From Eledone cirrhosa (lineage: Eukaryota): a stretch of 64,000 nucleotides of DNA. Position numbers and translations under genes: made by a program. Under the pieces are notes generated by a model. That model searched no databases, had not been told where the DNA came from, and saw only the letters and a program-made list of their open reading frames with translations. This document shows positions 11,691 through 48,357 of the stretch, piece after piece; the first letter of the stretch is position 1, and every line of letters begins with the position of its first letter. The stretch spans positions 134,292,001 to 134,356,000 of the forward strand of contig OZ024742.1 in assembly GCA_964016885.1 (NCBI GenBank), read 5' to 3'.

Positions 11691-13451
11691 TTTGAAACGG
11701 AGAACTAGTGGCGCTTCGAATAACATGTATTATACATATTACAATCCTTTCTCTGGCGACCAGCTCGAGACACGATCAATGCAATGTTCGAATCTGACGC
11801 TAAAGTCGCACCGGCGGCCTTCACTCGGCAACTTAAGTCCTGTTGTTGTCCTTCGATGAGTGGTCAAGAATTGTATACGTCATCGGTATTTTTGGATACT
11901 CCTGGCAGTCGTATATTTGGTTCCTTTCGTTTGCCACCTGTAAATCAAAGTTGTTTCTTATATCGGAATTACTACTGTAGCAGGTAATGGGTTGTATGAT
12001 TGAACTGCTCGTGCCGTGTCGCAGCATTCCCGGCCTGTAGGCGCCCACACCCATGTCTATATTTCGCGCAGGCATGATACATATGGGTACTTATGTACCC
12101 ACAATCATCACATACACACCCGTAACTGTATTATATATAACAATCACAGTAAATATTGAATGTTCAGCGAATACTTAGAAATAATCTTTTTAAAAATGGA
12201 AACACATTTAAACAAACCTTTCTGAAAAACACGCCCTCAAAATACCTTAAAAAACACACATTTAAAAGAAAAAGGCCCTATAAAAAGAACGGTTTTAAAA
12301 GAATGCTAGAAAAAACTATTTCAAAGGTATTTTTGATAAATATACAAATATCTACACACACACACTGTACAGGAAAGCATATATACATAAGACACGGCAC
12401 ATATATACAGATGTAAACATGGACAATCTACAAATACATATGCATACACCTACACAGACATGTTCATACAAATACATACACTCAGACCAGCATACCCATG
12501 CATGTATGAATATATGCGTGCACACACATACATGCAGCCGCGCATGGGCAAGCGCATGGGCATGCACATGAGCATGCTTATACATCTAAAAAAAGCACAT
12601 GCTTGATGAATACCTACACATCCATACAGACACGCAACTGTGCACATGGCGCATAAAATATCATATGAGACAACATTCTTGAGGCTTGGACTCAACCCAT
12701 TCATAGAGCCATATAAGCCTGAAAGTGCATGCAGAATATGCAGGAATGCAATAGCTACGTAGTAGGCTTGTGCTAATCACATATAGCATGGGGCAGGCAC
12801 ATATATAAATGCGTGTACGTACTTAAAATAAAATAAGATAAAATGCAATACTGGAAAAAAGGAATGTATACATAAAAGAGTTGCAAAGGAGGTATCTGTT
12901 CACGCCACCCGGATATTATTGGGATTTGCATAAAGTTGCATCAAATACTTGAAGACTGTCATGCATAGGGTTATATAAAATACTCGACTGACGATCCAAG
13001 GGACTGGGTACGAAACTGCACACCAACCATGCAAATGAGACAGGTTTCATGACGGGCGGACACAAGGGACCGTGTGTGTATATATACACAAACAACTTAT
13101 ATATATTGTGAATTTTTAGAATATCCTATTCATAATAGTATATATGAAATGTATATGGAATGGATGTATATATAGAATATATCGGGAATGTATAGAATAT
13201 GTGTTTCATAACAGTATATATGAAATGTACATGGAATGGATGCATAAATGGAATATACCAACGGCTTGTGTTTTAGGCATGCATATAGCAACTGTAGGCA
13301 AAGTTAGAATTAATTGCAACATTAACCTTAAGTCCAACATAAAGTTGCAAATTAAACATCAAGACTCGAAAAAAAAAACCATCAAGAATCGAAAATTAAA
13401 AATAAAAGATTAAAAATATTAAATAAAAAAATTCAAATTCAAATTGAAACC

Positions 13452-14180
13452 CACATATGGTTCAATGCACCATACTCGAAGCATGTATGGACTGACGTGC
13501 CAGGCCTCTTCTTCAGGGTATTGGACCAGTGTTTCCCGGCATCCTAGAGGTACCACAAAATATTCAACCGCCACACCGGGAAGTTCTCTTTTTCCACGGC
13601 ACCCAACCTGGCCGACTACATGGCCAAGGCCAACGGAATGAAAATGAGGACACCTCACCGACAAACTTTACAGGTCTCAGCCACGAAGGGGCGGCCGAGG
13701 AGAGCGCATGGAGAAGTGGCTAGTAGTTCTGGAGATGTGTCTGAGAGCGGAGCTGTGACCGTGGAGGACGCAACATTTGACAAAAGAGATCAGCAAGTGG
13801 TGAACACCGAGTCCTCCACTATGCCGGAACACCACATGGGGACCAGGGAGAACCCAAATAAGACGTCAGGCTCACATAAAGGGAATTACAAAAATGATGC
13901 ACGGACATGTAACTGCTGTGTGGGTTAGCATTGCCCTCTGCAGGGAATGTACCTGACAAAGGGCATTGTCTACAGGCGTGTGGTTAACACACAAAATGGT
14001 AGGCACACCTACATCGGGGCAACATCCACGACTTTTAAATCGAGGATGTACAACCACAAGAACTCGTTCAAAGACAGGAACAACAGACACTCCACCGGAC
14101 TGGCGGACCTAATATGGGGACTGAAGGACAGTGGCACGGAGTTTGACCTCAGCTGGAGTATTGTACGGCGCGCGAATGCG
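13452..14180 (+). mobile_element. Penelope-like element (Neptune-type) fragment: linker plus GIY-YIG endonuclease, with stops
   Basis: HIWFNAPYSK, FFRVLDQCFP, KIFNRHTGKFSFST, CNC..CPLQG..GIVYRRVV..TYIGATSTTFKSRMYNHKNSF..IWGLKD. Confidence 0.9.
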
Positions 14181-14186
14181 TGTTTT

Positions 14187-15058
14187 TTAAATGCTGGGTA
14201 AATATTCTATGGCTGTTGTTCGCGAATAGGTGGCTATCGTTTATTTATCTATTATTTCTTCACAGCTGCCTTTTAATCTTATATCCTGTTTTAATTGTTT
14301 TTTTGTGTGGTTAATTATGCTAATTGGGAGAGCAAATTGAGTATATATCTTATGAAATGATTCTAAGGACATAATTTATAGTATATTGTTCTGATTATTT
14401 AATTTATTAATTCATCATTGAGCCACATCGTGAATGGTTACCAAAACCATATCTATGACTTTGTCTAGTTTGTGTATATGTAAATCTTTATATTTGATAA
14501 TCTCCCATGAGTTGAGATGCAATTTAGGCAATATTAGACTGCGCTTTCTAGCAACCAGCCTACTAGCCGTAAGGTACCAGTCACATTATTTCTGACTTGA
14601 CCACTGCCACGTCACAGTTCTTAGCCATTTTAATCCGTTTCTGGCGGGGATCATTTAAGAAAAATATTTGTCCAAGTGAGTTTGTTTCCTGATGAGTTCG
14701 AAGTTCGAGTATTTATCTTTGATAGGATATTTCCGAAAGCGAACGAAACCCTAAAATGTAGGCACGTAATCCTGGTATGTGTATATGCAATTTTTCTTCT
14801 AACTTTAATTTTATACCTAATTGTGTATGGTTGACGATATATTTAATCGATATCCACGAGCTATTGAAATGCTGGGTAAATATTCTATGGCTGTTGAACG
14901 CGAATAGGTGGGTATCGTTTATTTATCTATTACTTCTTCACATGTGCCTTTTTAATCTTACAGCCTGGTTTAATCGGTATTTTGTGTGGTTAATTAAGCT
15001 AATTGGGAGAGGAAATGAGTATATATCTTATCAAATGATTCTAAGGACATAATGTATA

Positions 15059-15060
<2 letters not shown>
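14187..15060 (+). repeat. About 680-bp unit with about 200-bp terminal redundancy and an HHR-like core (pLTR or retrozyme-like)
   Basis: Segment atgctgggtaaatattc... at 14191 and 14869; CTGATGA-gttcg...cgaac-GAAAC at 14689-14749. Confidence 0.65.
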
Positions 15061-15096
<36 letters not shown>

Positions 15097-15249
15097 ATAA
15101 ATGCTCTGAAATAGCGATATATATGTGAGTATAGACATAGAATATTCGAAAATATTCTGTATGTTTATAATAAACATTTTGAAGACCTAATCGCTATAGA
15201 ATAGAATACGTCACGTATTACAATTAGATTCTCGATAAAAGCAAGGGAA

Positions 15250-15292
15250 GTAATCTACGCGTTTCATTCTTGTTAGAATTCATCAGGACCAC
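15250..15292 (-). ncRNA. Minimal type-I hammerhead; identical copies start at 15560, 15870, 16180, 16490, 16800 and 17110
   Basis: Reverse complement: gtggtc-CTGATGA-attct aaca agaat-GAAA-c-gc-g-TA-gattac. Confidence 0.92.
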
Positions 15293-17441
15293 ATATCCAG
15301 TGCTTTTATCGAGAATGACACAGCTAGAGACTTATAGAATACTTAGCTGTGTACTGGAACTGGTTTGAAAGAGCGGTTGCCGGTCCGGCAGAAATTAGAA
15401 ATTGGAATAAATGCTCTGAAATAGCGATATATATGTGAGTATAGACATAGAATATTCGAAAATATTCTGTATGTTTATAATAAACATTTTGAAGACCTAA
15501 TCGCTATAGAATAGAATACGTCACGTATTACAATTAGATTCTCGATAAAAGCAAGGGAAGTAATCTACGCGTTTCATTCTTGTTAGAATTCATCAGGACC
15601 ACATATCCAGTGCTTTTATCGAGAATGACACAGCTAGAGACTTATAGAATACTTAGCTGTGTACTGGAACTGGTTTGAAAGAGCGGTTGCCGGTCCGGCA
15701 GAAATTAGAAATTGGAATAAATGCTCTGAAATAGCGATATATATGTGAGTATAGACATAGAATATTCGAAAATATTCTGTATGTTTATAATAAACATTTT
15801 GAAGACCTAATCGCTATAGAATAGAATACGTCACGTATTACAATTAGATTCTCGATAAAAGCAAGGGAAGTAATCTACGCGTTTCATTCTTGTTAGAATT
15901 CATCAGGACCACATATCCAGTGCTTTTATCGAGAATGACACAGCTAGAGACTTATAGAATACTTAGCTGTGTACTGGAACTGGTTTGAAAGAGCGGTTGC
16001 CGGTCCGGCAGAAATTAGAAATTGGAATAAATGCTCTGAAATAGCGATATATATGTGAGTATAGACATAGAATATTCGAAAATATTCTGTATGTTTATAA
16101 TAAACATTTTGAAGACCTAATCGCTATAGAATAGAATACGTCACGTATTACAATTAGATTCTCGATAAAAGCAAGGGAAGTAATCTACGCGTTTCATTCT
16201 TGTTAGAATTCATCAGGACCACATATCCAGTGCTTTTATCGAGAATGACACAGCTAGAGACTTATAGAATACTTAGCTGTGTACTGGAACTGGTTTGAAA
16301 GAGCGGTTGCCGGTCCGGCAGAAATTAGAAATTGGAATAAATGCTCTGAAATAGCGATATATATGTGAGTATAGACATAGAATATTCGAAAATATTCTGT
16401 ATGTTTATAATAAACATTTTGAAGACCTAATCGCTATAGAATAGAATACGTCACGTATTACAATTAGATTCTCGATAAAAGCAAGGGAAGTAATCTACGC
16501 GTTTCATTCTTGTTAGAATTCATCAGGACCACATATCCAGTGCTTTTATCGAGAATGACACAGCTAGAGACTTATAGAATACTTAGCTGTGTACTGGAAC
16601 TGGTTTGAAAGAGCGGTTGCCGGTCCGGCAGAAATTAGAAATTGGAATAAATGCTCTGAAATAGCGATATATATGTGAGTATAGACATAGAATATTCGAA
16701 AATATTCTGTATGTTTATAATAAACATTTTGAAGACCTAATCGCTATAGAATAGAATACGTCACGTATTACAATTAGATTCTCGATAAAAGCAAGGGAAG
16801 TAATCTACGCGTTTCATTCTTGTTAGAATTCATCAGGACCACATATCCAGTGCTTTTATCGAGAATGACACAGCTAGAGACTTATAGAATACTTAGCTGT
16901 GTACTGGAACTGGTTTGAAAGAGCGGTTGCCGGTCCGGCAGAAATTAGAAATTGGAATAAATGCTCTGAAATAGCGATATATATGTGAGTATAGACATAG
17001 AATATTCGAAAATATTCTGTATGTTTATAATAAACATTTTGAAGACCTAATCGCTATAGAATAGAATACGTCACGTATTACAATTAGATTCTCGATAAAA
17101 GCAAGGGAAGTAATCTACGCGTTTCATTCTTGTTAGAATTCATCAGGACCACATATCCAGTGCTTTTATCGAGAATGACACAGCTAGAGACTTATAGAAT
17201 ACTTAATACGTGACGTATTCTATTCTATAGCGATTAGGTCTTCAAAATGTTTATTATAAACATACAGAATATTTTCGAATATTCTATGTCTATACTCACA
17301 TATATATCGCTATTTCAGAGCATTTATTCCAATTTCTAATTTCTGCCGGACCGGCAACCGCTCTTTCAAACCAGTTCCAGTACACAGCTAAGTATTCTAT
17401 AAGTCTCTAGCTGTGTCATTCTCGATAAAAGCACTGGATAT

Positions 17442-17484
17442 GTGGTCCTGATGAATTCTAACAAGAATGAAACGCGTAGATTAC
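17442..17484 (+). ncRNA. Minimal type-I hammerhead in the inverted arm; second copy at 17752-17794
   Basis: gtggtc-CTGATGA-attct aaca agaat-GAAA-cgcg-TA-gattac; predicted cleavage after A17478 and A17788. Confidence 0.92.
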
Positions 17485-18138
17485 TTCCCTTGCTTTTATC
17501 GAGAATCTAATTGTAATACGTGACGTATTCTATTCTATAGCGATTAGGTCTTCAAAATGTTTATTATAAACATACAGAATATTTTCGAATATTCTATGTC
17601 TATACTCACATATATATCGCTATTTCAGAGCATTTATTCCAATTTCTAATTTCTGCCGGACCGGCAACCGCTCTTTCAAACCAGTTCCAGTACACAGCTA
17701 AGTATTCTATAAGTCTCTAGCTGTGTCATTCTCGATAAAAGCACTGGATATGTGGTCCTGATGAATTCTAACAAGAATGAAACGCGTAGATTACTTCCCT
17801 TGCTTTTATCGAGAATCTAATTGTAATACGTGACGTATTCTATTCTATAGCGATTAGGTCTTCAAAATGTTTATTATAAACATACAGAATATTTTCGAAT
17901 ATTCTATGTCTATACTCACATATATATATATATATATATAAAGTACAGTGAATTTTTTGAAATTTAATTTGAAACTTTTTTCTTATTTGCTAAACCTGGA
18001 TTTTAGTCTTCAAATTTATTATTATTACTATATATATATATATATATATATAGTAATAATAATAAATTTGAAGACTAAAATCCAAAGAGGGCCCGATAAG
18101 GATAAATATATATCAAATATATAAGAACCGTAGAGCAA

Positions 18139-18275
18139 ATATTTATTAAAATAACAGATTAAAGTTTAAGCAATGCATCGTTGCTTTCACCCATAACGGG
18201 ATCTTCTGAAACTCCAAAGATCACGTTAAGGGTGAAAGCAGCAATTCTTTGCTTAAACTTTAATCTGTTATTTTA

Positions 18276-18283
<8 letters not shown>
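18139..18283. repeat. 145-bp fold-back element with degenerate hammerheads on its arms
   Basis: 35-bp perfect inverted arms; minus strand 18164-18212 reads gttt-CAGAAGA-tccc gttat gggt-GAAA-gcaa..ttgc-TT-aaac. Confidence 0.65.
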
Positions 18284-18327: not shown

Positions 18328-18662
18328 AGCTAAATATACTATACATATTTATGTATACATCACTATTTCAGAGTAGCAATTCTAAAACCTAATTTTTGCT
18401 GAATCGGCAATCTCTCTCCGTATATTCAGCTCCAGATTATTATTGGAGTTCTATTAGAATGCTCTTATAATTTTCGGCGGAAGCAGGGGAGTGTGTGTCT
18501 CTGATGAACGTCAACCTGCGTGAAACAGACTGTCAGCCTCTCTCCTATCTTTCGCTGAAAATAAATAAGTGACATAGTCACTACTTTAAAACTGATAGCC
18601 TTTGGTGTTCTAAATGATTCTAATTAAACATACGGTATATTGCCAAATATACTATACACGCA

Positions 18663-18666
<4 letters not shown>
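18324..18666 (+). repeat. Single about 313-nt retrozyme-like monomer with terminal redundancy and an HHR
   Basis: aaatatactatac at 18332 and 18645; HHR core at 18501-18534; flanked by (TA)n. Confidence 0.75.
18486..18546 (+). ncRNA. Type-I hammerhead ribozyme (GUC triplet)
   Basis: ct-CTGATGA-acg tcaacctg cgt-GAAA-cagactg-TC-ag, with distal ggggag/ctctcc extending stem I. Confidence 0.75.
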
Positions 18667-32142: not shown

Positions 32143-35100
32143 AGTTGCATTTATCTTGCTTTATGTTCATACAAGTTATCACCAAGTCACAACCAGTGAC
32201 CTCAAGAGACAACAAGGTCCGCCATGTTCAAGAAAGAACATACACACTCACACATGCATCTTTAGTGTTTAGACTTGTGATGTACTTATATTGACAGAAT
32301 CTTCCTTAGTATATGGGCAGTTCCCATTAGTACTATCTTTTGTATTTCTCCTATACGCGGGTTTCCTGCGATTTGCGATAAGTAATCATTAGACCCCTTA
32401 GGTATTATTCCCAGAGCGCCTACAACCACTGGTATTGTTTTAGTTCTCAATTTCCACATTTTTCCAATTTCTATCTCCAGGTCCTTATACTTGCTCAATT
32501 TTTCAAATGTTTTTATAGATACATTCTTGTCTATTGGAACATACATATCAATTAGCAGGCATACCCTCTTTTTAAAGTCCTTCAATATTATACCAGATCT
32601 ATTTGATCTATTTTTCGGTCTGTTTGGATGCTTAAGTTCCACAAAATTGGGATGTGATCGTTTTCAGGTATGGGAGGTGGTTGATGCTCCCACCAATTCT
32701 TTTGATGGGGCAGGTAAAAATGCTTACCCATTATCCAATGTATGTATTGTGCAGCTCTGTCATGCCTGTTTAGGTATTCGGTTGGAGCTATAGGACTGCA
32801 CATTGAAAATATATGGTCAATGGTATCTGGTTGTTTTTTGCATACACGGCATCATGGGCTGCATCCATTTGTTATTATGTTGGCTTGGTAATTTTTTGTT
32901 GGCAGACACTGATCTTATGCTGATATAATCAGTCCTTCAGTCTCCGATTTCAGTCCAGAGGATGCCAACCACTGATGGGTTAAAGTGTTGTCAACATCAG
33001 GATTGTTAGCTCGCTCTGGGTATTTTCCATACAGAGGCTTTTCTTGCCATTTCTTAGCCAGTTTCTGTAGCAGTTCTTTCTTTGCAGTTACTTTTACCTG
33101 CTTGCTTTTTCTGTGTTTTCCATTTCAGCAGTAAATGGGACTTCTGAAATGTGTAGTCCATTACTGTATCTTTGCGCATCTTTTGTAATGGAATATGATC
33201 TTTTGATGCTTTCGTGTTTCAAAATGAGTTTGATCATCCAATCATGTGATTCCCTTAGATATGTAGATAATCCAATTGTTGCAGTTTTCAACGCAATGTC
33301 TAACTGGATTAACCCACGTCCTCCTTCTTTCCTAGGGAGATATATTCTATCTATATCTGCCTTAGGGTGATGCATTCTGTGCATGGTCAAGAATTTTCGA
33401 AATTTTGTATCGAGCCTACGGATCTCTGTGCTTGACCAGTTGATGACATTGTAACTGTAGGTTAATACTGGTATGGCAAGCGTGTCTATGACATCGATCC
33501 TATCCCTTGCATTCAATTCCGTTCTTAAGATTGCTCTTACTCTGCGGTAACATTCCTTCCTTAACCTTTCCCTCATTGTCGAGTGCTTGATTCCGTCTCC
33601 TTCACAAACAGCTAGATATTTGTAAGTTTTTTCTTGATCAAGTTCTCTTATCACGTTCCCCCGATCAAGATTTATGTCTGAACTCTTCAGCAGCTTTCCT
33701 CTGGTGAACGTTGCTTTGGCGCATTTATCTAGTCCAAACTCAATTTTAATGTCATCACTGAGCTGCTCCACAGTGGATAATAGCCCTTGCAATTGTTCAT
33801 CATTTTTTGCAAATAGTTTCAGGTCATCCATGTAGAACAAGTGATTAATGGTTTTGTCATAGACTTTATATCCATGTTTTGTTTCATTGAGCATTTTACT
33901 TAATGGTATAAGTGCGATGCAGTATAAAAGCGGTGATAAAGAGTCACCCTGAAAAATTCCACAATTAATATTAACTTCTCCAGCTTCCAGTGTTTCACTA
34001 TCAAAAGGAGTGTCGTTTTCCATGTCTTCATACTGAATGACAAAAACCTCCTGATAACGGGGGATATTTTGAAAATCTCTAAACATTTTCAATCCAACTG
34101 TGTGGCAAACTATCGAATGCTTTTTTATAATCTATCCAAGCAATCGATAGCTTTTTGTGTCTTTTATGACAATCTTCCAGTATCATTTTGTTAACTAAAA
34201 GCTGATCCTTACAGCCATATGAGCCTCGTTTACACCCTTTCTGCTCAATGGGACATAGGTCATTTGTTATCAGGTGGTCATATCTGTATTCAGTTAGGAC
34301 TGATGTTAAAATTTTATATATTGTGGTCAAGCAAGTTATCGATCTGTAATTTTTTGGATTGTTTGTCTCATCATTCTTCAGAAGCAGGAATGTAATGCCG
34401 TTAACTAGCCATGATGGTATATTTCCTGGCTCCTTAACTATTTCATTGTAAAGTTGGGCTAACAGCTCATGAGACTCTCTGAAGGCATTTATCCACAATT
34501 TTGTATGTTATCTTTTCCTGGGGATTTCCATTTGCTGGTTTTTCTTAGAGCCAAGCGCAACTGTTCAACTGTTATGTTTTCCCATATTTGTTCCTCAAGG
34601 TGAGCTGTATCTTTCATTTGTATGTCTATCCATGGGGCATGTATGTTATGAACTTTTCTTCGGCCCAGATCTTTTCCCATAATTCTTGCACTTCCTCCTT
34701 GGGTGGTATTGATTTAGCAGTTATTGTTGACTTACCAATTTTTCTGTAGAAGTTTCTTTGGTTGTTTTTGAACATATTATTGTCCTTATAGAATCTAGAT
34801 CGTTTTTCAAAGCGCCTTATACGAGCAGCTTTGGCCGACACTTTTTGCTTGATTATTTCTATCAGCATGTCTATGTCACTTGTTGATTTTATACTGTACT
34901 TTCTTTTCAATTTTCTAAGTTTAGTGTGTTTAACATGTTCACCTACTTTATAGTTTGTTAACATTTCTATGTCAGATTGGAGAGGGTTTATTTGGCGATT
35001 GATGTCCTCTTGCCAAGTAGATTTCTTGTGGGAATTCCTTTGTTTTTTCATCTTCACTCCACATAAGTGAGTGGTGACTTTAGCCGATGCATAATAGAGA

Positions 35101-36010
35101 TGATTTAAATCAGTAATGTTTAGTTTGTTTGGGATGATAATGTTTTTGAGAATTATGTTAGTCTTGTGTATTATCTTTTGGTTCTGTTTGGAGTTCTGGA
35201 TCTTAGGGAGGGTGTCTCGTTGCCCCATGTCAGATTCTTTCATTTTCATCCATTCGATCATAATTTCATCCTTCAAGTTGGCAAGTTCATTCTCATTCAT
35301 TTCTTTATTATTTACGATCTCATTATTTTCATTTGGAGTTTCATCCTGAGCATGCACTCCCTCCACTTTTTCGATCTTTTCTTTAATTTGTTCTGTTGCC
35401 AGTGATTCCGCCCCAACCCTGGGATTCGAAGTGTTACAATTTACCTCGTTTTCACTGACACATGTTTCATTTTCCCTTCGCTGACTTTGTGCTAATAGCT
35501 TGATCTGATCAATTTCTATATCAGTTAGTAACTTTTTTCTTATAATATTTCTTCGTATATTGGCTAGTTTGTTACTGTCAATATAGCCTCTGTTTTCGGG
35601 ATGTTTCTTTTTCCAGTTGATATATGTCTGTTCTGTATTCGATGTATTTGATGGGTAGTACATGGCAGTGTAGAAAGCCTCAAGGACTTCTTTATTATCT
35701 TCCCTTGACCATTTTTCTCTCTTTTTCTTTGGATTTCTTGGTGGTGAGCATGGAGGGCCAACAGTAGGAGTATTCCGATTATGGGAGGTCTCCAGCTCCG
35801 AAGTGATGGGAAGGTTTCAACCATTAGCTGATTTTTCGACCCCAGTCTGGTTCCTCTCTGAGGGACGCGGCCCTATTTTACCCGGGTGACGGCCGATCCG
35901 GTATGAGATTTTATCATTAGACATTTACTTTATTTTGTCGCGTTTTATCCTTATCAGCCAAGGGGTAATCATTTCGTGTTACCACTTCTAGAACGAGTGT
36001 CAACCGAGAC
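32141..36010 (-). mobile_element. R4/Dong LINE family B, near full length, frameshifted
   Basis: WKSPGKD, EQKGCKRGSYGCKDQLL, WIDYKKAFDS, GIFQGDSLSP, LFYMDDLKL and RLE KLSKYKDL; (TAA)n at both ends. Confidence 0.92.
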
Positions 36011-36032: not shown

Positions 36033-39000
36033 GAATGCTATAGTTGACGGAGGCTCGGCTCTGTAAGGTATTGTAAATTTTGAACACTATAACAATTGTA
36101 AATTGTTTAAAACTTTAACGAACTTGTAGGCAAAAACACCCTCCTCCTCGTGAGAGGGGTCTTTCTGCCCGTTATTTGGCCCTTCGGGGTTAAATAACTG
36201 CTTATTGGGGTTTTGTACCCAATATTTATTTTAAACAAAAAAAAAAAAACAACATGGCTACGAAAAAGAAATTTCATAGGTAACTCCCACTCATTCCGTC
36301 TTCTTCTTCCTCAATCATCACTACAGCAGAGAGAGGATTGTCCCCCCCCCCTTCTTTAAATGTGTCTCTCTCCCTCCCTTCTCTTTCGCAAGCGACGAAA
36401 GAAAAGAAAAGTCTCGTGCAAAGCGTGCACGGTTTCTCCACGACGACGACGACAGCGACGAAACAGGTGTGCGGGAAATACGAAAACCCAGTTCATTCGT
36501 CTGACGTCAGGAATAATAGCAGTAGCAGCCGTAATAACAACAGCAACAGTGACAATGAAAACAACAGTAGCAGCCGCAACAGCATCACCAGCAGCATAAA
36601 CAACAACAGCATTAGCAACAGCAACACCAACAACAACCACAGCAACAGCGGCGGAGGCAGTAGTCGTAGTACCTGCAGCAACAACAAAAGTAACAGCAGC
36701 TCTGACGACAACAACAACAACAGCAGCAAAGAAAAACCAATCTCATTTGCAGGTATTGCGAAAAACTTGGAAACAATCCTCATAACAAATGAGGAATTAG
36801 AGGAAGCGAAGAAGATGGTGACAAAGACTGGACACCGAGCAATCTGCAAGGCAGCGGAAAAAAAAAAAAATTTTTTCGAAATCCAACAGCACTGTACGGT
36901 CACGTACCTTACAGTAAGTACAAAATCCCGTAGGGTGGAAAGAGCCACAGACGCTCAAATACAAAAAGCCTTGGGGTCTGTGTGGCAGCGGAAAACGCAC
37001 ATCACCCGAGGCAAAACATATGCCACCGTAGACGTACTTTTTGCCACACCCCAGGAGGCAAAGACCCAATCCGGAGTGACCCTAAGGAGCGAGGAAATGG
37101 TTTGGTGCCCTCCTACTGCTGGCAAAAAATAGTGAGGGTCAAACTGACCCACGTCCCCCCCGGGATGGTCCTTTCTTGGCTGGCCGCGTCTGTCCTCGTC
37201 GGAATCGAGGACAAAACAACTGTACTGCAAGTACAGGAAAAAGTAAGAGGAGATTGGGTCGGCACCTCCATTGAGATGCTAATCCAAACCATCGAAGCTA
37301 TCCCGGATGTGATAGACTTCGATAACGGCACTCAACTGCCCATAAGTTTTGAGGGAAAACGCCCGAAATGCTTTCGCTGTGGATCGAAGACTCACCTCAG
37401 GGCCTTCTGCAACGAGAACACCCTGAGAAAGGAGAAAACCCCCTCCTTCCGAAACCGGCTCCACAGCTACCAGCAACAGGACAAGCGGTTACCAGGAACG
37501 ATAGGTCCGTGGCACCCATACCCACGCCACGGAAATCAAAAACAGCAGCAGCAGTGGAAATATTAACAACAACAACAGCAATATCAAATGCAGCTGCAAC
37601 AGAGACTCCAGTGCAAACATCACCAACAACAACAAGTGAAAGAGTGGAGCTGGTACCCCTCCCCGACCTCACAGAATCAGACATGGAGTGTGAGGTGGGA
37701 GAGGGATGGCAAAAGGTCGTAAGAAGGCACAAACGCAGAAGCAGCGCATCGTCGCCTTTGAAAAGGGAGGAAAGAAATAAGAAAAGGCTAAAGTCTACTG
37801 CAAAGAGACCCACAGCAGCAACACCACCAACACCATCACCATCCACACTAGCACCACCATCACCACCGGCGACAACCCCACCGCCAACAACACCTTCAAC
37901 ACCACCACCACAAGCACCAACATCGCAAACACAACAACAAAACACACACACCCAGCAAAAACGACAAGAAAATAGCAGAAATAGTTATGCGGGCGTTGAC
38001 GTGGGCCATCGTCAACAACAAGTGGTGGTTTGCTCTGAAAAGAGCGATTAGAATAGAATCCATTAGGTTTAATAAGGCTTTAGCAATAGAGAAAAATAGA
38101 GCAGAGGGAGAACTAGTTAGAAAATTAGACGAGGCGCTTAGCAAAGGCATCGCGACCGACGTGCTTGCGGCGAAACTGGTCCTTGACCAATTCTTCAATG
38201 CAAAGCACGAAGGTTGCGTTGTCAGGGCAAGGGGGGTGCGTGCTCTCAGACACGAGGGGACGAAAGCCGTTCAATGGGCCCGAGTGGCGGAGGCGCGTCG
38301 TGGCAACAAAGCCACGATCCGGTCTTTGGTGGACAACGACGGGCGCATGATACTCGATCCCGGGCAAATGTATGAAGCTTTTCAGCGACACTTCGCTCAG
38401 CTGTTCGGGGGCAGCGGTGGGCCGGGTCGAGGGATGGACTTTAGTGTCTACCTCGACGGATTGCCGCGGCTCTCGGCCACTGAGGCGAAGTGTTGCGAAA
38501 AGCCGATAACTGCCGCTGAAGTAAGGGAGGCATTGACTGGCTGCACAAGGGGTAAATCGCCTGGTTTGGATGGTCTGCCCTATGATCTTTACGTACAGAT
38601 GCCAGACTTGTTCAGAGGCCTCTTAGCGGACGTCTACTGCAACTGGCAACAGAACGCGAGAATTCCCAGTTCTGTGAGCCGAGGAGCGGTGGCACTGCTG
38701 AGAAAGGATCCTAACAAGGGGGATAACATAGATCATTTCCGGCCCATAACTCTGCTAAACACAGAGTTCAAGATTTTGGCCAAGGTGCTAGCAAAGAGGT
38801 TGGCGCTTGTCGTTGGTTGTCTGGTGGGAGAGGCGCAGTCATGCGCCATTCCCGACACATCCATCCACGACAACCTCCACCTCATGCGATACATCGTAGA
38901 GAGGGTAGCTAAGGAACCTGGCACGGGTGGGTCCTTGATCAATTTAGATCAGTCGAAAGCTTTCGATAGGGTCGACCATCGTTACCTAGCGGCAGTCCTG

Positions 39001-40857
39001 AGGGCGGCTTGCTTTGGGCCCGTCTTCAGAGGCTGGATCGCTGCCATGCACAGCGACATCTGCTCTGTGGTGAGAGTGAACGGTCACCTGTCGGAACCGT
39101 TCAACATCATGCGCTCGGTCCGCCAAGGATGTCCCCTCTCGTCCCTCTTGTACGTATTGACTCTCGGGCCATTACTGCACAAACTGGAGACGTTGAGGGG
39201 CGTCCTGCGCGAACTAGGATGCGGAAGATCCGTGTCAGCGTATGCGGACGATGTCACCGTAGTGGTGTCGAACGCCAAACACATCGAGGCGATCGGCACT
39301 ACAATAAGAGAATACGAAGCGGTGACAGGAGCAATGATCAACCAGGAAAAGTCAGTGGGCCTGCAGCTCGGCACCTGGAGAGGAAGGTCCATGCCGTCCA
39401 ACAGCGTCGTCGGACGCTGGACGGACGGACCGGTTAAATTGCTAGGGGTCTGGTTCGGTCCGGACCTCCAGACGGACAAAAACTGGGACGAGGTGACGAG
39501 CAGGGTGGCTTCTCTCACCCAGAAATGGGCGGAGAGGAAGCTATCCCTGAAAGATCGAGCGGAGGTTGCTAACGCGTACATCGCGTCTGTCATCTGCTAC
39601 CGCCTGACCGTCGTACCTTGTCCTAAGCCTCGCCTGACTGCGCTGGAGCGTTTGCTCTTTCGCTTTTCGTGGAAGGGACGCGCTCCGATGGTCAGGCGGT
39701 CCATCTGTTGTCAACACCCGCTACGTGGAGGGCTGGGCATGCCGTGGCTGATAATGCGCAGGCACGCGCTCAGGCTACGACATCTCCACCTCTTCCTCGA
39801 CGGTGATCAGGTGTGGTCGCCGTTTGATAGACACGTATTTCCCCAGCTCGTTTCCTTGACGGAGCTGCAGTCCTGGGTCAAGCGAAGACCGAGAGGGAGC
39901 GCCTAAAGACTGGAATGTCTTCAGGCGCTCACAGCCCTCGACCAATCGGGCAATGTGATGGGTGGAAACTCCACCTCGGCGTTCTATAGAGGATTAGTGG
40001 AGGGGAAGAGCGACGACGTACTTGGGGAAAATCTAGGCGTCGACGAAAATCAACTAGCCAATCTCTTCGGAAGAACTTTCGGGCCAGGGCCTATGGACAA
40101 CTTCCAGAAATCTCTGGCCTGGCAGTGCTACCGAGGAGCCTTACCAGTTCGGGATATACTCTACAGGCATGGAGGTGCCGTCAGCCGGGCATGTCCGAGA
40201 TGCGCGCAGGGCGACGAAACCGTCCTGCACGCACTCGTCCAGTGTCCGAAAATTGCTGACTTGTGGGTTTATGTCGAACACCTGCTGTCGCGTTTAGGAC
40301 GGATCCGGCTATCATCTGAGTCCATCGTGAGGATTGCCCCGCCCTCCTCCTTTAGCCGGGAAGGGCAGGCAGTTTTTATCTGTCTGGTGGCCATGGCGAA
40401 AGAGATAGTATGGTGGACACGTTTGAAAGGGCTGAAGACGAGCACTTACCTCTTCGGTGATGCTCTGATTGACTTTTTCAAATTTCATTTGAAAAGGAAA
40501 ATCAGAGTAGAGAGGGAAATGCTCTCTTCCCAGTATTTACGAGAAAGATGGGTGAGAGAAGCAAGAATGGCCCGAGTGAATGGGCCTACTCTGAGTATGT
40601 ATCTGTAAATTAAAGGTGGAAAACTGGGAGAGGGCACTTGCCTTGGTGGTCAGGGTCATTTTGGCTTTTTACTTGGCTTTCTCCACAAATGTCCCTCCGA
40701 AGTCTCCCCCCTATTGGGGAATTTTTCATTGTTATTTTTTGTCACACCCTCTGTTTTTTGTTTTTTACACGCAGAAATGCCCATTTGTACCGTCCTGTTT
40801 TGTCCTGCACTGTCCTTAATGTCTACTTTATGTAAACCCTTGTGGTTAATAAAGAAA

Positions 40858-40860
<3 letters not shown>
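36033..40860 (+). mobile_element. Tx1/L1-type LINE copy 1 (APE domain deleted at about 37980)
   Basis: ORF1 CCHC knuckle CFRCGSKTHLRAFC; RT motifs KSPGLDG, DQSKAFDRV, VRQGCPLS, AYADD; C-terminal CPRC..ETVLHALVQC. Confidence 0.92.
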
Positions 40861-40901
<41 letters not shown>

Positions 40902-43900
40902 GAATGCTATAGTTGACGGAGGCTCGGCTCTGTAAGGCATTGTAAATTTTGAACACTATAACAATTGTAAATTGTTTAAAACTTTAACGAACTTGTAGAC
41001 AAAAACACCCTCCTCCTCGTGAGAGGGGTCTTTCTGCCCGTTATTTGGCCCTTCGGGGTTAAATAACTGCTTATTGGGGTTTTGTACCCAATATTTATTT
41101 TAAACAAAAAAAAAAACAACATGGCTACAAAAAAGAAATTTCATAGGTCACTCCCACTCATTCCGTCTTCTTCTTCCTCAATCATCACTACAGCAGAGAG
41201 AAGATTGTCTCTCTCCCTCCCTTCTTTAAATGTGTCTCTCTCCCTCCCTTCTCTTTCGCAAGCGATGAAAGAAAAGAAAAGTCTCGTGCAAAGCGTGCAA
41301 GGTTTCTCCACGACGACGACGACAGCGACGAAACAGGTGTGCGGGAAATACGAAAACCCAGTTCATTCGTCTGACGTCAGGAATAATAGCAGTAGCAGCC
41401 GTAATAACAACAGCAACAGTGACAATGAAAACAACAGTAGCAGCCGCAACAGCATCACCAGCAGCATAAACAACAACAGCATTAGCAGCAGCAACAACAA
41501 CAACAACCACAGCAACAGCGGCGGAGGCAATAGTCGTAGTACCTGCAGCAACAACAAAAGTAACAGAAGCTCTGACGACAACAACAACAACAGCAGCAAA
41601 GAAAAACCAATCTCATTTGCAGGTATTGCGAAAAACTTGGAAACAATCCTCATAACAAATGAGGAATTAGAGGAAGCGAAGAAGATGGTGACAAAGACTG
41701 GACACCGAGCAATCTGCAAGGCAGTGGAAACATTTTTTGAATCCCAACAGCACTGTACGGTCACGTACCGTACAGTAAGTACAAAATCCCGTAGGGTGGA
41801 AAGAGCCACAGACGCTCAAATACAAAAAGCCTTGGGGTCTGTGTGGCAGCGGAAAACGCACATCACCCGAGGCAAAAAATATGCCACCGTAGACGTACTT
41901 TTTGCCACACCCCAGGAGGCAAAGGCCCAATCCGTAGTGATCATAAGGAGCGAGGTAATGGTGTTGGTGCCCTCCTACTGCGGGCAAAAAATTGTGAGGG
42001 TCAAATCGACCCCCCCCCCCACCGAATGGCCCCTTCTTGGCTGGCCGCGTCTGTCCTCGTCGGAATCGAGGACAAAACAACTGTACTGCAAGTACAGAAA
42101 AAGTTAGAGAAGATTGGGTCGGCACCTCCATTGAGATGCTAATCCAAACCAACCAGGAGTGCATCGAAGCTATCCCGGATGTCATAGACTTCGATAACGG
42201 CACTTAACTGCCCATAAGTGTTGAGGGAAAACGCCCGAAATGCTTTCGCTGTGGATCGAAGACTCACCTCAGGGCCTTCTGCAACGAGAAAACCCTGAGA
42301 AAGGAGAAAACCCCCTCCTTCCGAAACCGTCTCCACAGCTACCAGCAACAGGACAAGCGGTTACCAGGAACGATAGGTCCGTGGCACCCATACCCACGCC
42401 ACGGAAATTAAAAACAGCAGCAGCAGTGGAAATATTAACAACAACAACAGCAATACCAAATGCAGCTGCAACAGAGACTCCATTGCAAACATCACCAACA
42501 ACAACAAGTGAAAGAGTGGATCTGGTACCCCTCCCGACCTCACAGAATCAGACATGGAGGGTGAGGTGGGAGAGGGATGGCAAAAGGTCGTAAGAAGGCA
42601 CACACGCAGAAGCAGCGCATCGTCGCCTTTGAAAAGGGAGGAAAGAAATGAGAAAAGGGTAAAGTCTACTGCAAAGAGACCCACAGCAGCAACACCACCA
42701 ACACCATCACCACCCACACTAGCACCACTATCACCACCGGCGACAACCCCACCGCCAACAACACCTTCAACACCACCACCACAAGCACCAACATCGCAAA
42801 CACAACAACAAAACACACACACCCAGCAACAACGACAAGAAAATAGTAGAACCACACCCCACCCCCAGAAAAACAAATGCACGGCAATAAATACACACAA
42901 CAAGAAACTAATGACTTACATAATTGAACACACAGACATTTCACAACACGACTACATAATACCAGCACCAATCAAAACACCAACTAACATAAGACTGCTA
43001 AAAATAGCACAGAAACAATACACAAACATTAAAACGAAATTCCCCAACGCAGTTGGTGATTTCAGGGACCTAGGAGGAACTATCAATCGAAGAGTATATT
43101 CAGACATTCTCATAGAAGAGCCGACGAACAGCCGAAGGGACGATTCAACGGTCCCTTCACCAGACGATCAAGTGAAAAGGGATGTAAAAACCATCCCTCC
43201 TCTACCAAAAGTACGGTAAGTGGTCTTTCCCATCTTTTCCACTCTATTTTAAACATGACCTCACTAAGAATAGGCAGCATAAATGCGCGTGGCTTGGGGT
43301 TGTCATGGGAGCAGGGTCACCTGCTCAACGACCTCAGGTCACTAAACATAGATGTAGTGGCCATCAGCGAGACCAGAATCTCCGAAGCACGGGCCTTCGC
43401 ACCGACCTTCGGCGGCTACGATGTGTACGCATCTCCCAGCCGTTCTGGATCGGGGGGCGGAGTTGCTGTGCTTTTTCGGAGAGGTTTGAATCTCGCCATA
43501 CGGGCCATCTTCCTGGACCCAGAGGGTAAGCTGGTGGTGCTGGACGTGACCAGCGGAGACGGGCAAGCTTTCAGGCTAGTGGCCGTCTATGCCCCGACAG
43601 GAGCAGGGAGGCCTGATTTCTTCCGGCGTCTGGAGACCTTTCTTGGAACGTCCCGCTCTTTAGTGTTAGTGGGCGACTGGAACGGGATCTTAGATGCACG
43701 GTGGGACTGTGTGGGATTAGCGGATAGGGGTGGAGGGTGCAAGAGCCTCACCAACCTGCTCAGGCGTTTTGAACTGTCTGACAGGTACCGATTGGATTTC
43801 CCGAATGTGCCAATGTGGACTTGGCAAATCGTATAGGGTCATCCAGATCATATCTAGATAGAGTATTTTGTAGGGAAATAGATAGGTCTAGCATAGGCTG

Positions 43901-45674
43901 TCCACAATTCAAGATAGTCAGCTACACGGACCACAAATTCGTGATCTGTGTGCTTGAATTAGATAGGCTTCATAGACGAGGACCCGGCTACTGGAAGCTA
44001 AACGCGTCCTTACCAGCGCGCAAGGCCTACAGAGACCGGATTAGCGAACTAGTTAAGCGGGCGTTGACGGGGGCCATCGTCAACAACAAGTGGTGGTTTG
44101 CTCTGAAAAGAGCGATTAGAATAGAATCCATTAGGTTTAGTAAGGCTTTAGCAATAGAGAAAAATAGAGCAGAGGGAGAACTAGTTAGAAAATTAGACGA
44201 GGCGCTTAGCAAAGGCATTGCGACCGACGTGCCTGCGGCGAAATTGGCCCTTGACCAATTCTTCAATGCAAAGCACGAAGGCTGCGTTGTCAGAGCAAGG
44301 GTGCGTGCTCTCAGACACGAGGGGACGAAAGCCGTTCAATGGGCCCGAGTGGCGGAGGCGCGTCGTGGCAACAAAGCCACGATCCGGTCTTTGGTGGAAA
44401 ACGACGGGCGCATGCTACTCGATCCCGGGCAAATGTGTGAAGCTTTTCAGCGACGATTCGCTCAGATGTTCGGGGGCAGCGGTGGGCCGGGTCGAGGGAT
44501 GGACTTTAGTGTCTACCTCGACGGACTGCCGCGGCTCTCGGCCACTGAGGCGAGGTGTTGCGAAAAGCCGATAACAGCCGCTGAAGTAAGGGAGGCAATG
44601 ACTGGCTGCACAAGGGGTAAATCGCCTGGTTTGGATGGTCTGCCCTATGAACTTTACGTACAGATGCCAGGCTTGTTCGGAGGCCTCTTGGCGGACGTCT
44701 ACTGCAACTGGCAACATAACGGGAGAATTCCCAGTTCTGTGAGCCGAGGAGCGGTGGCACTGCTGAGAAAGGATCCGAACAAGGGGGATAACATAGACAA
44801 TTTCCGGCCCATAACTCTGCTAAACACAGAGTTCAAGGTTTTGGCCAAGGTGTTAGCAAAGAGGTTGGCGCTTGTCGTTGGCGGTCTGGTGGGAGAGGCG
44901 CAGACATGCGCCATTCCCGACAGATCCATCCACGAGAACCTCCACCTCATGCGATACATCGTAGGGAGGGTAACTAGGGAACCTGGCACGGGTGGGTCCT
45001 TGATCAATTTAGATCAGTCGAAAGCTTTCGATAGGGTCGACCATCGTTACCTAGCCGCAGTCCTGAGGGCGGCTGGCTTTGGGCCCGTCTTCAGAGGCTG
45101 GATCGCTGCCATGCACAGCGACATCTGCTCTGTGGTGAGAGTGAACTGTGACCTGTCGGAACCGTTCAACATCATGCGCTCGGTCCGCCAAGGATGTCCC
45201 CTCTCGTCCCTCTTGTACGTATTGACTCTCCAGCCATTACTGCACAAACTGGAGACGTTGAGGGGCGTCCTGCGCGAACTAGGATGCGGAAGATCTGTGT
45301 CAGCATATGCGGACGATGTCACCGTAGTGGTGTCGAGGGAAGTGCTCTCTTCCCAGCATTTTGTTGAAAAATGGGTGAGAGAAGCAAGTATGGCCCGAAT
45401 GAATGGGCCTACTCTGAGTATGTGTCTGTAAATTAAAGGTGGAAAACTGGGAGAGGGCACTTGCCCTGGTGGTCAGGGTCACTGTGGTCTTTTAATGGGC
45501 TTTCTCCACAAATGTCCCTCGGAAGTCTCCCCCCTATTGGGGAATTTTTCTTTGTTATTTTATTTCATCCTCTGTTTTTTTTACACGCATAAATGCCCAT
45601 TTGTACCGTCCTGTATTGTCCTGTACTGTCCTTAATGTCTACTTTATGTAAACCCTTGTGGTTAATAAAGAAAA

Positions 45675-45675
<1 letters not shown>
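40902..45675 (+). mobile_element. Tx1/L1-type LINE copy 2 (deletion after YADD at about 45336)
   Basis: ORF1 at about 41121-43219; APE motifs SINARGL, ISET, VYAP, VGDWN, YLDRV, TDHK, YWKLN; RT up to AYADD. Confidence 0.93.
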
Positions 45676-45735
<60 letters not shown>

Positions 45736-45738
45736 TTT

Positions 45739-48357
45739 GAATGCCGTGGTTGACGGTGGCTCGGCTCTGTAAGGGATATTAATGTTTAACCGCTGTAACA
45801 ATTGTAAAACTTTAAAAACTTTAACGAAATTGTAGATAAAAACACCCTCCTCCTCGTGAGAGGGGTCTTTCTGCCAGTTATATGGCCCTTCGGGGTTAAA
45901 TAACCGCTTATTGTGATTTTGTGCCCAATATTTATTTTAAACAAAAAAACATGGCTACAAAAAATAATTTTCACAAGTCACTCACACTCATTCCGTCTTC
46001 CTTTATCTTCACTACAGCAGAGAGAAGATTGTCTCTCTCCCTCCCTTCTCTAAATGTGTCTCTCTCCCTCCCTTCTCTTTTGCAAGCGACGCCATGAAAG
46101 AAAAAGAAAAATTGAGTTTCTGATAGCGTTCACCAAGAGCACGTGCATTTCGTGGAACATTTCTCCACGACGACGACAACGATGAAAAATGTGTGCGGTA
46201 AATACGGAAAGCCATTTCATTCGTCTGACGTCATGAAGAATAGCAGTAGCAGCCGTAATAACAGCAGCAGCAGCAACAGTGACAAGGAAAACAGTAGTAG
46301 CAGCCGCAACAACATCAACAGCAGCAACAGCAACAACAACAGCAGCAGCAGCAACAACAACAACATCCGCAGCAACAGCGGCGGCGGCGGTCGTAGTACC
46401 AGCAGCAACAACAAAAGTAACAGCAGCTCTGATAACAACAACAAGAACAACAAGAAAGAAAAAACAATCTCGTTTACAGGTATCGCTAAGAACCTGGAAA
46501 CCATCGTCATAACAAATGAGGAATTACATGAAGCAAAGAAGATGGTGACGAAAACCGGACCAGCCGAAGCGACATATAATTTGTGGTGAGAGTGAACGGT
46601 CACCTTTCGGAACCGTTCAACATCATGCGCTCGGTCCGCCAAGTTTGTCCCCTCTCGTCCCTCTTGTACATATTAACTCTCAAGCCATTACTGCACAACC
46701 TGGAGACGTTGAGGGGGATCCCGCGCGAACTAGGATGCGGAAGATCCGTGTCAGCATATGCGGACGATGTCAGCGTAGTGGTGTCGAACGTCAAACGCAT
46801 TGAGGCGATCGGCACTACACAAGAGACGACGAAGCGGTAGCAGGAGCAATGATCAACCAGGAAAAGTCAGTGGGCCTGCAGCTAAGCACCTGGAGAGGCA
46901 GGTCCATGCCGTCCAACATCGTCGTCGGGCGCAGGACAGACGGACCGGTTAAATTGCTAGGGGTCCGGTGAGGTCCGGACCTCCAGACGGACAAAAACTG
47001 GGACGAGGTGACGAGCAGGGTGGCTTCTCTCACCCAGAAATGGGCTGAGAGGAAGCTATCCCTGAAAGGTCGAGCAGAAGTGGCTAACGCGTACATCGCG
47101 TCCGTCATCTACTACCGCCTGACAATCGTACCTTGTCCTTAGCCCAGCCTGACTGCGAGGGAGCGTTTGCTCTTTCGCTTTTTGTGGAAGGGAAGCGCTC
47201 CGGTGTTCAGGCGGTCCAACTGCTGTCAACACCCGCTACGTGGAGGGCTAGGCATGCCGTGGCTGATAATGCGCAGACACGCGCTCAGGCTACGACATCT
47301 CCACCTCTTCCTCGACGGTGATCAGGTGTGGTCGCCGTTTGCTAGACGCGTCTTTCCCCAGTTCGTCTCCTTGACGGAGCTGCAGTCCTGTGTCAAGCGA
47401 AGACCGAGATGGAGTGCTTGGAGACTGGAATGTCTTCAGGCGCTCACAGACCTCGACCAGTCGGGCAATGTGATCGGTGGAAACTCCACCTTGGCGTTCT
47501 ATAGAGGATTAGTGGAGAGAAAGAGCAACGACGTACTTGGAGAAACTGTAGGCGTCGACGAAAATCAACCAGCCAATCACTTCGGAAGAATTTTCGGGCC
47601 GGGGCCTATGGACAACTTCCAGAAATCCCTGGCTTGGCAGTGCTGCCGAGGAGCTTTGCCAGTTCGGGATAAACTCTACAGGCATGGAGGTGCCGTCAGC
47701 CGGGCATGTCCGAGATGCGCGCAGGTCGACGAAACCGTCCTGCACGCACTCGTCCAGTGTCCGAGCATTGCTGACTTGTGGGTTTATGTCGAACACCTGC
47801 TGTCACGTGTAGGACGGATCCAGCTGAGTCCATCGTGAGGTTTGCCCCGCCCTCCTCCTTTAGCCGGGAAGGGCAGGCAGTTTTTATCTGTCTCGTGGCC
47901 ATGGAGAAAGAGATAGTATGGTGGACACGTTTGAAAGGGCTGAAGACGAGCACTTACCTCTTCGGTGATGCTCTGATTAATTTTTACAAATTTCATTTGA
48001 AAAGGAAAATCAGCGTAGAGGGGGAAGTGCTCTCTTCCCAGCATTTTGTTGAAAGATGGGTGAGAGAAGCAAGTATGGCCCGAGTGAATGGGCCTACTCT
48101 GAGTATGTGTCTGTAAATTAAAGGTGGAAAACTGGGAGAGGACACTTGCCCTGGTGGTCAGGGTCACTGTGGCCTTTTAATGGGCTTTCTCCACAAATGT
48201 CCCTCGGAAGTCTCCCCCCCCCCCACTTGTTATTTATTGTTACATCCTCTGTTTTTTGTTTTTTTACACGCAGAAATGCCCATTTGTAACCTCCTGTATG
48301 GTCCTGTACTGTCCTTAATGTCTACTTTATGTAAACCCTTGTGGTTAATAAAGAAAG
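45739..48357 (+). mobile_element. Tx1/L1-type LINE copy 3 (large deletion joining ORF1 to RT at about 46560-46580)
   Basis: Diverged 5' UTR and ORF1 start, then RT 3' half, zinc finger and 3' UTR. Confidence 0.9.

Follow-up and report, generated by a model that had tools for sequence, protein, structure and literature searches.

Opposed tandem arrays of a hammerhead retrozyme in Eledone cirrhosa: probable Penelope-type copying of one RNA monomer from two fixed sites

How does a short noncoding unit come to lie in a genome as two tandem arrays that run outward from a shared point into a simple (TA)n repeat? The question is raised by a locus in a 64,000-nucleotide (nt) stretch of the Eledone cirrhosa genome (assembly GCA_964016885.1, contig OZ024742.1, positions 134,292,001 to 134,356,000, forward strand; this whole stretch is hereafter the window), where two perfect 310-bp arrays, each unit of which contains a type I hammerhead ribozyme motif, sit on opposite strands, joined 5' to 5', with (TA)n on both outer sides. 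We favor the possibility that a Penelope-type reverse transcriptase (RT)/endonuclease copied this retrozyme into (TA)n from two fixed sites on a single RNA monomer, probably a circle, and put the probability of this reading at roughly 65%. Its parts differ in firmness: that a Penelope enzyme mobilized the retrozyme is something we scarcely doubt, that two primers were extended on one template molecule is quite probable, and that the template was circular, a conclusion drawn from patterns in the genome, is likely to a somewhat lesser degree.

The features of the locus are collected in Table 1, where unit position 1 is the first base 3' of the predicted hammerhead cut. The plus arm is an exact reverse complement of part of the minus arm, and the internal CAUAUAUAU tract with which it runs into the right-hand (AT)n is likely the primer-pairing site. 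Any target-site duplication is masked by (TA)n. A preliminary description of this DNA, made from its letters, had reported a perfect 310-nt array with seven minus-strand and two plus-strand copies and had called it a candidate retrozyme; array, copy numbers and class all stand, whereas the outward course of the arms into (TA)n, with differing fixed ends, had been overlooked.

Table 1. Positions of the retrozyme arrays and associated features in the window
Feature	Position	Strand	Remarks
Left (TA)n target microsatellite	15055..15090	.	
Minus arm	15091..17205	-	2115 bp; 6.82 identical 310-bp units; 7 hammerheads; 0 mismatches at period 310
Minus arm outer end	15091	-	Unit position 165, the 'long' site
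Tail, about 35 nt	15091..15125	-	Unit positions 131-165; at the minus-arm outer end only; compare PMC8557442 and PMC11167929
Type I hammerhead motif	17110..17152	-	Six others at 310-bp steps, down to 15250-15292; predicted cuts after 17116, 16806, 16496, 16186, 15876, 15566 and 15256
5'-to-5' arm junction	17204..17205	.	Unit positions 221 and 36; 2-nt overlap TA
Plus arm	17204..17927	+	724 bp; 2.34 units; 2 hammerheads
Type I hammerhead motif	17442..17484	+	Predicted cut after 17478
Monomer, cut site to cut site	17479..17788	+	Predicted 310-nt RNA
Type I hammerhead motif	17752..17794	+	Predicted cut after 17788
Internal CAUAUAUAU tract	17919..17927	+	Unit positions 131-139; runs into the target (AT)n
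Plus arm outer end	17927	+	Unit position 130-139, the 'short' site
Right (AT)n target microsatellite	17928..17940	.	
Copy of an older sister hammerhead family	18330..18666	+	Between (TA)n runs; z score 10 against shuffles

Insertions of the same family elsewhere in the genome end at the same two places. Our sample of 62 loci is non-random, comprising the window, 18 loci from the genome matches listed and three sets selected by allele or end (13 by the window allele, 20 by the long-end pattern and 10 by the A276 pattern), and arm alignments below 93% identity were dropped. In 52 of the 62, a minus arm and then a plus arm, joined 5' to 5', form an inverted double array in (TA)n; six of the other ten are seemingly single-armed, two have incomplete sequence, L051 has a 41-nt second arm that falls under the identity filter, and L070 extends past the examined stretch toward a known short end. 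Outer ends fall at two unit sites, a short one at about 130-139, where the CAUAUAUAU tract merges with the target, and a long one at about 163-170, and one of each was found in 51 of 52 double loci, the exception being L035. The rule holds in 33 of 34 double loci once those picked by their long end are removed (p = 2e-9), and 13 further loci include six readable double ones, all of which obey it; L132 has an atypical long end at 189. The tail between the two sites, about 26-35 nt, is present at one end only in 51 of 52 loci, and (TA)n adjoins 105 of 114 outer ends in the 62 loci. With its long end, its short end and its 2-nt junction overlap, the window locus fits this family rule.

Inner ends occur all over the unit, slightly more often in its first third (Kolmogorov-Smirnov p = 0.012), and do not pile up at the predicted cut (3 of 116 against 3.7 expected). 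Inserts, or sequence that was not exactly extendable, mark 15 of 58 junctions; the other 43 are insertion-free, and 22 of these have microhomology of at least 2 nt where 18% would be expected (p = 8e-7). Arms average about 5 units, 92 of 102 are longer than one unit, and lengths are uncorrelated between the two arms (rho = 0.07): where the two differ by more than one unit, the greater length is with the short-end arm in 14 loci and with the long-end arm in 23. We also considered a common inner phase of both arms as a sign of a nicked circle and rejected it, as only 5 of 58 junctions were within 15 nt when about 6 were expected. Separately, the inner junctions at L046:3627-3657, L054:2030-2083 and L143 contain pieces of other repeats, which suggests template capture during joining.

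The evidence for a single template per insertion comes from sequence variants. In the 43 loci where both arms exceed 330 nt, the majority haplotypes of the two arms match in 39, with 20 haplotypes represented, while permuting arm haplotypes gave a mean of 5.7 matches and a maximum of 14 in 20,000 permutations; at two of the other four, L058 and L081, the mismatch depends on an arm edge or on single coverage. Variant G35T, carried by 73 units genome-wide, occupies every unit at 7 loci, with two or three backgrounds among them, and is single at 8 others, as one unit among several at 7 and in a sub-unit arm at one. Intermediate variant frequencies were seen in only 4 cases among 583 units. Double loci contain 45 interior single-unit substitutions, and none of the 24 that lie within the other arm's reach is mirrored in register; a lone candidate for mirroring, in L071, was discarded as out of register (765 versus 5049 nt from the ends). 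Only two singleton changes recur between loci. The strict split of one site per arm, together with the common haplotype, suggests that both sites are used together on one RNA.

The family from which these loci were drawn is large and young. A 16-mer across the ribozyme core has 19,077 matches in the 3.0-Gb assembly, a lower bound for units, and its reversed control has 0; units total about 5.9 Mb, or about 0.2% of the genome. The exact outer-end patterns give at least 1,296 short and at least 1,003 long ends genome-wide, and from 9.4 units per locus (583 units in 62 loci) we estimate about 2,000 loci. The recent amplification supposed in the preliminary description agrees with these numbers, at least 19,077 units, and with copies that are 96-100% identical, and very young dispersed loci already hold 5-12 units per arm. 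The ribozyme allele of the window (G276, A287) is rare, with 182 units versus 3,727 for A276/A287.

By its sequence the 310-bp element is a young retrozyme of the non-LTR kind (LTR, long terminal repeat), a known class: tandem units whose length falls inside the 150-450 bp or so of the class, one type I hammerhead in each, noncoding, with GC below 50% (33-35% in the array region) and dispersed in many copies. A structure-aware scan that required the type I hammerhead core and pairing in stems I, II and III, on both strands of the whole 64 kb, found exactly nine motifs, seven minus and two plus, all inside the arrays. The motif has a 6-bp stem I (two G.U), a 5-bp stem II, a palindromic stem III (ACGCGU) and the triplet GUA. 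Nine complete motifs in noncoding 310-bp units of a dispersed family bear out the initial retrozyme call; every stem then quoted was recovered, and the statement that there is no open reading frame (ORF) accords with a longest ATG ORF of 30 amino acids (aa). The expected preference for a dimer fold was reproduced as well, in that two copies co-fold with an intermolecular 6-bp stem III, and palindromic helix III is known to favor hammerhead dimers (PMC4209133). Compared with shuffles, the monomer folds at z = -4.2 as a linear molecule and -4.6 as a circle, and the antisense strand folds about as well (z = -4.3). No Rfam hammerhead family (clan CL00010) matched at its gathering score, and the arrays are therefore not filed under any of them; a search with 5.5 kb gave Hammerhead_HH9 alone (21.5 bits against a gathering score of 52, E = 0.086), and Hammerhead_1, with which the preliminary description had proposed to search, was absent from its results. 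The hammerhead occurs in one polarity per unit, with none on the unit's opposite strand, and there is therefore no sign of RNA-to-RNA replication; viroid-like replicons have ribozymes in both polarities, and this element is genome-encoded.

Selection appears to act on the fold of the sense RNA. The 19 substitutions that were amplified through arms all leave the catalytic core untouched; three in stem I keep pairing, one is at the free core position 7 and two are in loop II. Predicted pairs are retained by 6 of 8 amplified changes at paired positions versus 4 of 27 singletons (p = 0.003), and 4 of the 6 pair-keeping changes go via G.U, which is functional on the sense strand only. The change A287T, which is commoner than A287, makes U.U the basal pair of stem II, a feature shared with axolotl HHR_Amex2, whose motif does cleave (PMC7229834).

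With regard to the enzyme, the insertion ends point to endonuclease-positive (EN+) Penelope-like elements. In Neptune, Poseidon and Naiad (PMC8557442, PMC3846280, PMC11167929, PMC4209133) one likewise finds an inverted 5'-truncated copy, a 30-40-bp tail at one end, a bias toward (TA)n, two internal RT starts and a hammerhead near these starts. In vitro, a Poseidon enzyme was described as nicking both strands and extending them from two internal starts that bound the tail, and it is predicted to be a dimer (PMC11167929). A search of the Eledone genome for GIY-YIG domains gave 150 scored matches, of which 16 with long open frames were examined, and most of these belong to four RT plus GIY-YIG families with a CX4CxxC linker. 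We label all four Neptune-type provisionally, by the linker alone, a motif that Nematis also has. One of them, famB, is an autonomous element of about 4.2 kb whose RT plus GIY-YIG frame is open, and its C-terminal GIY-YIG is preceded by the CX2-5CxxC-type linker by which the Neptune clade is recognized (PMC8557442). It is young (40 scored copies mostly 99-100% identical, 1,086 candidates, a tandem period of 4202 bp), and in its hammerhead stem II has U.U and stem III is palindromic. The long and short ends of famB lie 172 and 127 nt past the cut, compared with 165 and 130 in the retrozyme. Short plus long ends were found in 9 of 9 readable inverted famB loci, a count in which the query guaranteed one long end except at L118 and from which L151 was excluded as unreadable, and in both readable famA loci. 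That famB is the helper is a tentative proposal, to which we give slightly less than even odds and which is a best guess because direct sequence likeness is borderline; no likeness of the unit to the pseudo-LTRs (pLTRs) of famA and famD was found among the three families compared.

Several other features of these helper candidates may be recorded. The 3' region of famA (L123:5403-5436) has a hammerhead-like motif with a UUGAAAA core, presumably a U3-A8 pair replacing C3-G8. At L123:7091-7187 there is a small palindromic repeat of two back-to-back hammerhead halves that aligns to unit positions 226-305 (69-73% identity, E about 1e-5), and the long stem of the retrozyme may descend from an old inverted junction. 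A U-UUU-UUA heptamer is conserved at the overlap of the ORF1 and RT-endonuclease frames in three Neptune-type families (L149:5130-8791 and other famB copies, L120, L122, L123) and likely serves as a -1 ribosomal frameshift; we do not put it forward as new, an optional ORF1 frameshift being already in PMC8557442.

The route that we envisage would begin with array transcripts whose hammerheads, probably acting as dimers, cut them into monomers that are then ligated to circles. The enzyme would nick both strands of (TA)n, as another Penelope element does in vitro. Arms start about 130 and about 165 nt past the cut, one each per insertion, and one monomer variant runs throughout both arms, as though both cDNAs had been copied from one RNA by rolling through independent numbers of turns, with a mean of about 5 units. 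Where the inner ends meet, their phases are unrelated and there is short microhomology or a small insert; end joining between the two cDNAs would produce this.

Measured from the 5' end that cutting would leave on a monomer, the start sites are only 130-165 nt in; arms longer than 165 nt must cross the cut site, and the template was therefore either a ligated circle or an uncut multimer. The latter alternative, in which two-site Penelope priming uses a linear multimeric transcript that was never cut and copying depends little on the hammerhead, is unlikely but viable, because the Poseidon element inserts hammerhead-dead RNA in vitro, with unprocessed RNA as the main substrate and no reads ending at the cut (PMC11167929). 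Low cleavage of Xenopus retrozyme dimers, 8 of 9 being uncleaved in vitro (bioRxiv 10.64898/2026.07.22.740005), fits it too, as do three famB loci (L118, L146, L152) in which both arms stop within 12 nt of one 5' coordinate, like a linear RNA end, and look as if they had been copied from one broken linear RNA. Our reasoning in favoring the circle is that: (i) variants are all-or-one, as with the spread of G35T; (ii) mutations are not mirrored, and hardly any singletons recur between loci; (iii) arm lengths are independent and inner phases unshared and (iv) the ribozyme core is spared among amplified variants, indicating selection on the ribozyme. Furthermore, 5' truncation alone should shrink arrays copied from a linear multimer with every round.

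The Poseidon and Xenopus results weigh against the circle-based reading, and so do a number of points from our own data. The arms of L035 differ at three sites and L079 switches allele inside an arm, and second templates (or conversion) must therefore sometimes be involved. Two RNAs from one dominant source locus would likewise give matching arms, a linear multimer from near-uniform source arrays would yield uniform arms too, and the mirror test may have low power if singletons mostly postdate insertion. Stem III of the hammerhead is weak, the two A287 patterns match only 3,909 of the 19,077 units, most of which have U.U at the base of stem II, and the comparison of the retrozyme unit with the famB pLTR gave z = 1.8, with 14 of 300 approximate shuffles scoring as high.

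A second alternative is that monomer or dimer insertions later expanded in DNA by unequal crossover, in the manner of a satellite, the arms being homogenized by gene conversion. We consider this decidedly improbable. DNA expansion has been proposed for vertebrate retrozymes (bioRxiv 10.64898/2026.07.22.740005), and in our longest arms, those of L070 (more than 22 units) and L071 (more than 19), variants recur at intervals of 5 and 7 units, which points to local duplication at a later time. However, there are some 2,000 dispersed loci, the very young copies among them already have their many units per arm, intermediate variant frequencies are rare, and expansion leaves both the selection on sense-RNA pairs and the strict short plus long ends unexplained.

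More improbable still is that the inverted arm is a fold-back, self-primed copy of the first arm. This was proposed from the palindromic junctions of head-to-head Penelope copies (PMC3846280) and would explain the common arm haplotypes, and one junction here, that of L083, is a 16-nt palindromic overlap; palindromic junctions are otherwise rare and singletons are unmirrored. A fold-back copy can neither outgrow its template nor gain a tail, and as a general route it is contradicted by the arm lengths, since either arm may be the longer. An assembly artefact, a collapsed or chimeric repeat, is barely worth entertaining, for although the units are perfectly identical and no contig from four sequencing runs of unrecorded kind spans the locus, haplotype, junction and flanks differ from locus to locus under one end rule that is obeyed in two autonomous families as well.

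Those four runs also contain, in three cases, a 340-nt contig (310+30), which we did not use as a sign of circles, a DNA tandem giving the same. Nor can spread between species be claimed from the contigs of these runs; other repeats of the window occur there too.

The window holds several neighboring repeats. The sister family of hammerhead elements (Table 1) has 2,835 candidates, its best other copies being 85-88% identical to 18330-18666, and at L093 a pair of its copies is inverted, with a long end on one side and an end of the short type on the other. In the left flank, a minimal hammerhead-like motif at 14688-14760 (CUGAUGA, a long-loop stem II, GAAA) was recognized by eye and missed by the scan. 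An older duplication (14179-14386 and 14857-15064, 678-bp spacing, 88-94% identical) ends at the left (TA)n target and does not extend into the right flank, and so provides no empty target site. Short inverted repeats lie beside and around (TA)n at 17990-18083 and 18139-18283, the second from a family that is very abundant by contig depth. A decayed Penelope-like fragment occupies 13100-14200, with a GIY-YIG at 13929-14198 (Pfam E = 5e-4, below the cut-off); its motifs recall what we take to be the Hydra clade. Three stretches have LINE-like (long interspersed nuclear element) frames: 33094-35816 is presumably a fragmented element, 36284-47838 presumably consists of L1/Tx1-like copies in tandem, and 48494-51913 has what is presumably an RT frame, which runs for 1139 aa without a break on the minus strand.

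There is precedent for much of this. The retrozyme class, the circle hypothesis, the Penelope link and the inverted, tailed, (TA)n-directed character of Penelope insertions are all in print. Like the metazoan non-LTR retrozymes (PMC7229834, PMC7761336), ours has low-GC tandem units of about 300 bp with one type I hammerhead each, a short palindromic helix III and no ORF, and rolling copying of a circle by a Penelope RT was offered as a hypothesis for that class (PMC7229834). Unlike ours, those elements are described as head-to-tail tandems; 'inverted' does not occur in the accessible text of PMC7229834, no fixed priming sites or microsatellite target are given in the portions available, and according to PMC7761336 no conserved motif points to a helper. 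RNA circles were demonstrated for them (PMC7229834), whereas the Eledone element is known from genome sequence. The retrozymes of Li, Clavereau and Pollet 2026 (bioRxiv 10.64898/2026.07.22.740005), most families of which have up to about 7 units, similarly co-occur with Penelope-like elements. In that study, as far as its accessible text goes, the link is argued from co-distribution and pLTR phylogeny, local amplification of DNA is held responsible for the tandems, and 'tail', 'orientation' and 'priming' do not occur; here the Penelope signature comes from the insertion ends, and pLTR homology is weak.

Compared with the EN+ Penelope-like elements, the retrozyme has no protein and its arms reach 12 or more units. 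A circle model was suggested for Penelope tandems (PMC4209133); the Penelope tail has been called optional and the start site strand-independent in vitro, whereas here, almost without exception, one arm has one of the two sites and its partner the other. Plant LTR retrozymes and viroids share the small, highly paired RNA with hammerheads and the proposed circular intermediate, but in the Eledone element the hammerhead is type I and not type III, and there is no LTR, primer-binding site or polypurine tract. We found neither the inverted two-site retrozyme anatomy nor haplotype evidence for one template per insertion in the available portions of the retrozyme literature searched, where figures or supplements may show inverted loci.

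The origin of tandem, inverted, tailed Penelope insertions and the role of their hammerhead have been called open questions (PMC8557442, PMC11167929, PMC4209133), and Penelope copying of retrozyme circles has so far been put as a hypothesis (PMC7229834; bioRxiv 10.64898/2026.07.22.740005). The retrozyme family yields counts that separate the models, namely the start site per arm, the template variant per insertion and the unmirrored mutations, and one genome offers a small test system consisting of a 310-nt RNA and a young, intact candidate helper. It is conceivable, with the odds evenly balanced in our view, that a dimeric telomerase-like RT/endonuclease holds one ribozyme-made circle and that its two active sites prime one tail apart and roll around it. 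If true, this would account in one stroke for the tail, for arms that are inverted head to head, for pLTRs in tandem and for what the hammerhead is there to do; the autonomous 4.2-kb element would then take the same route.

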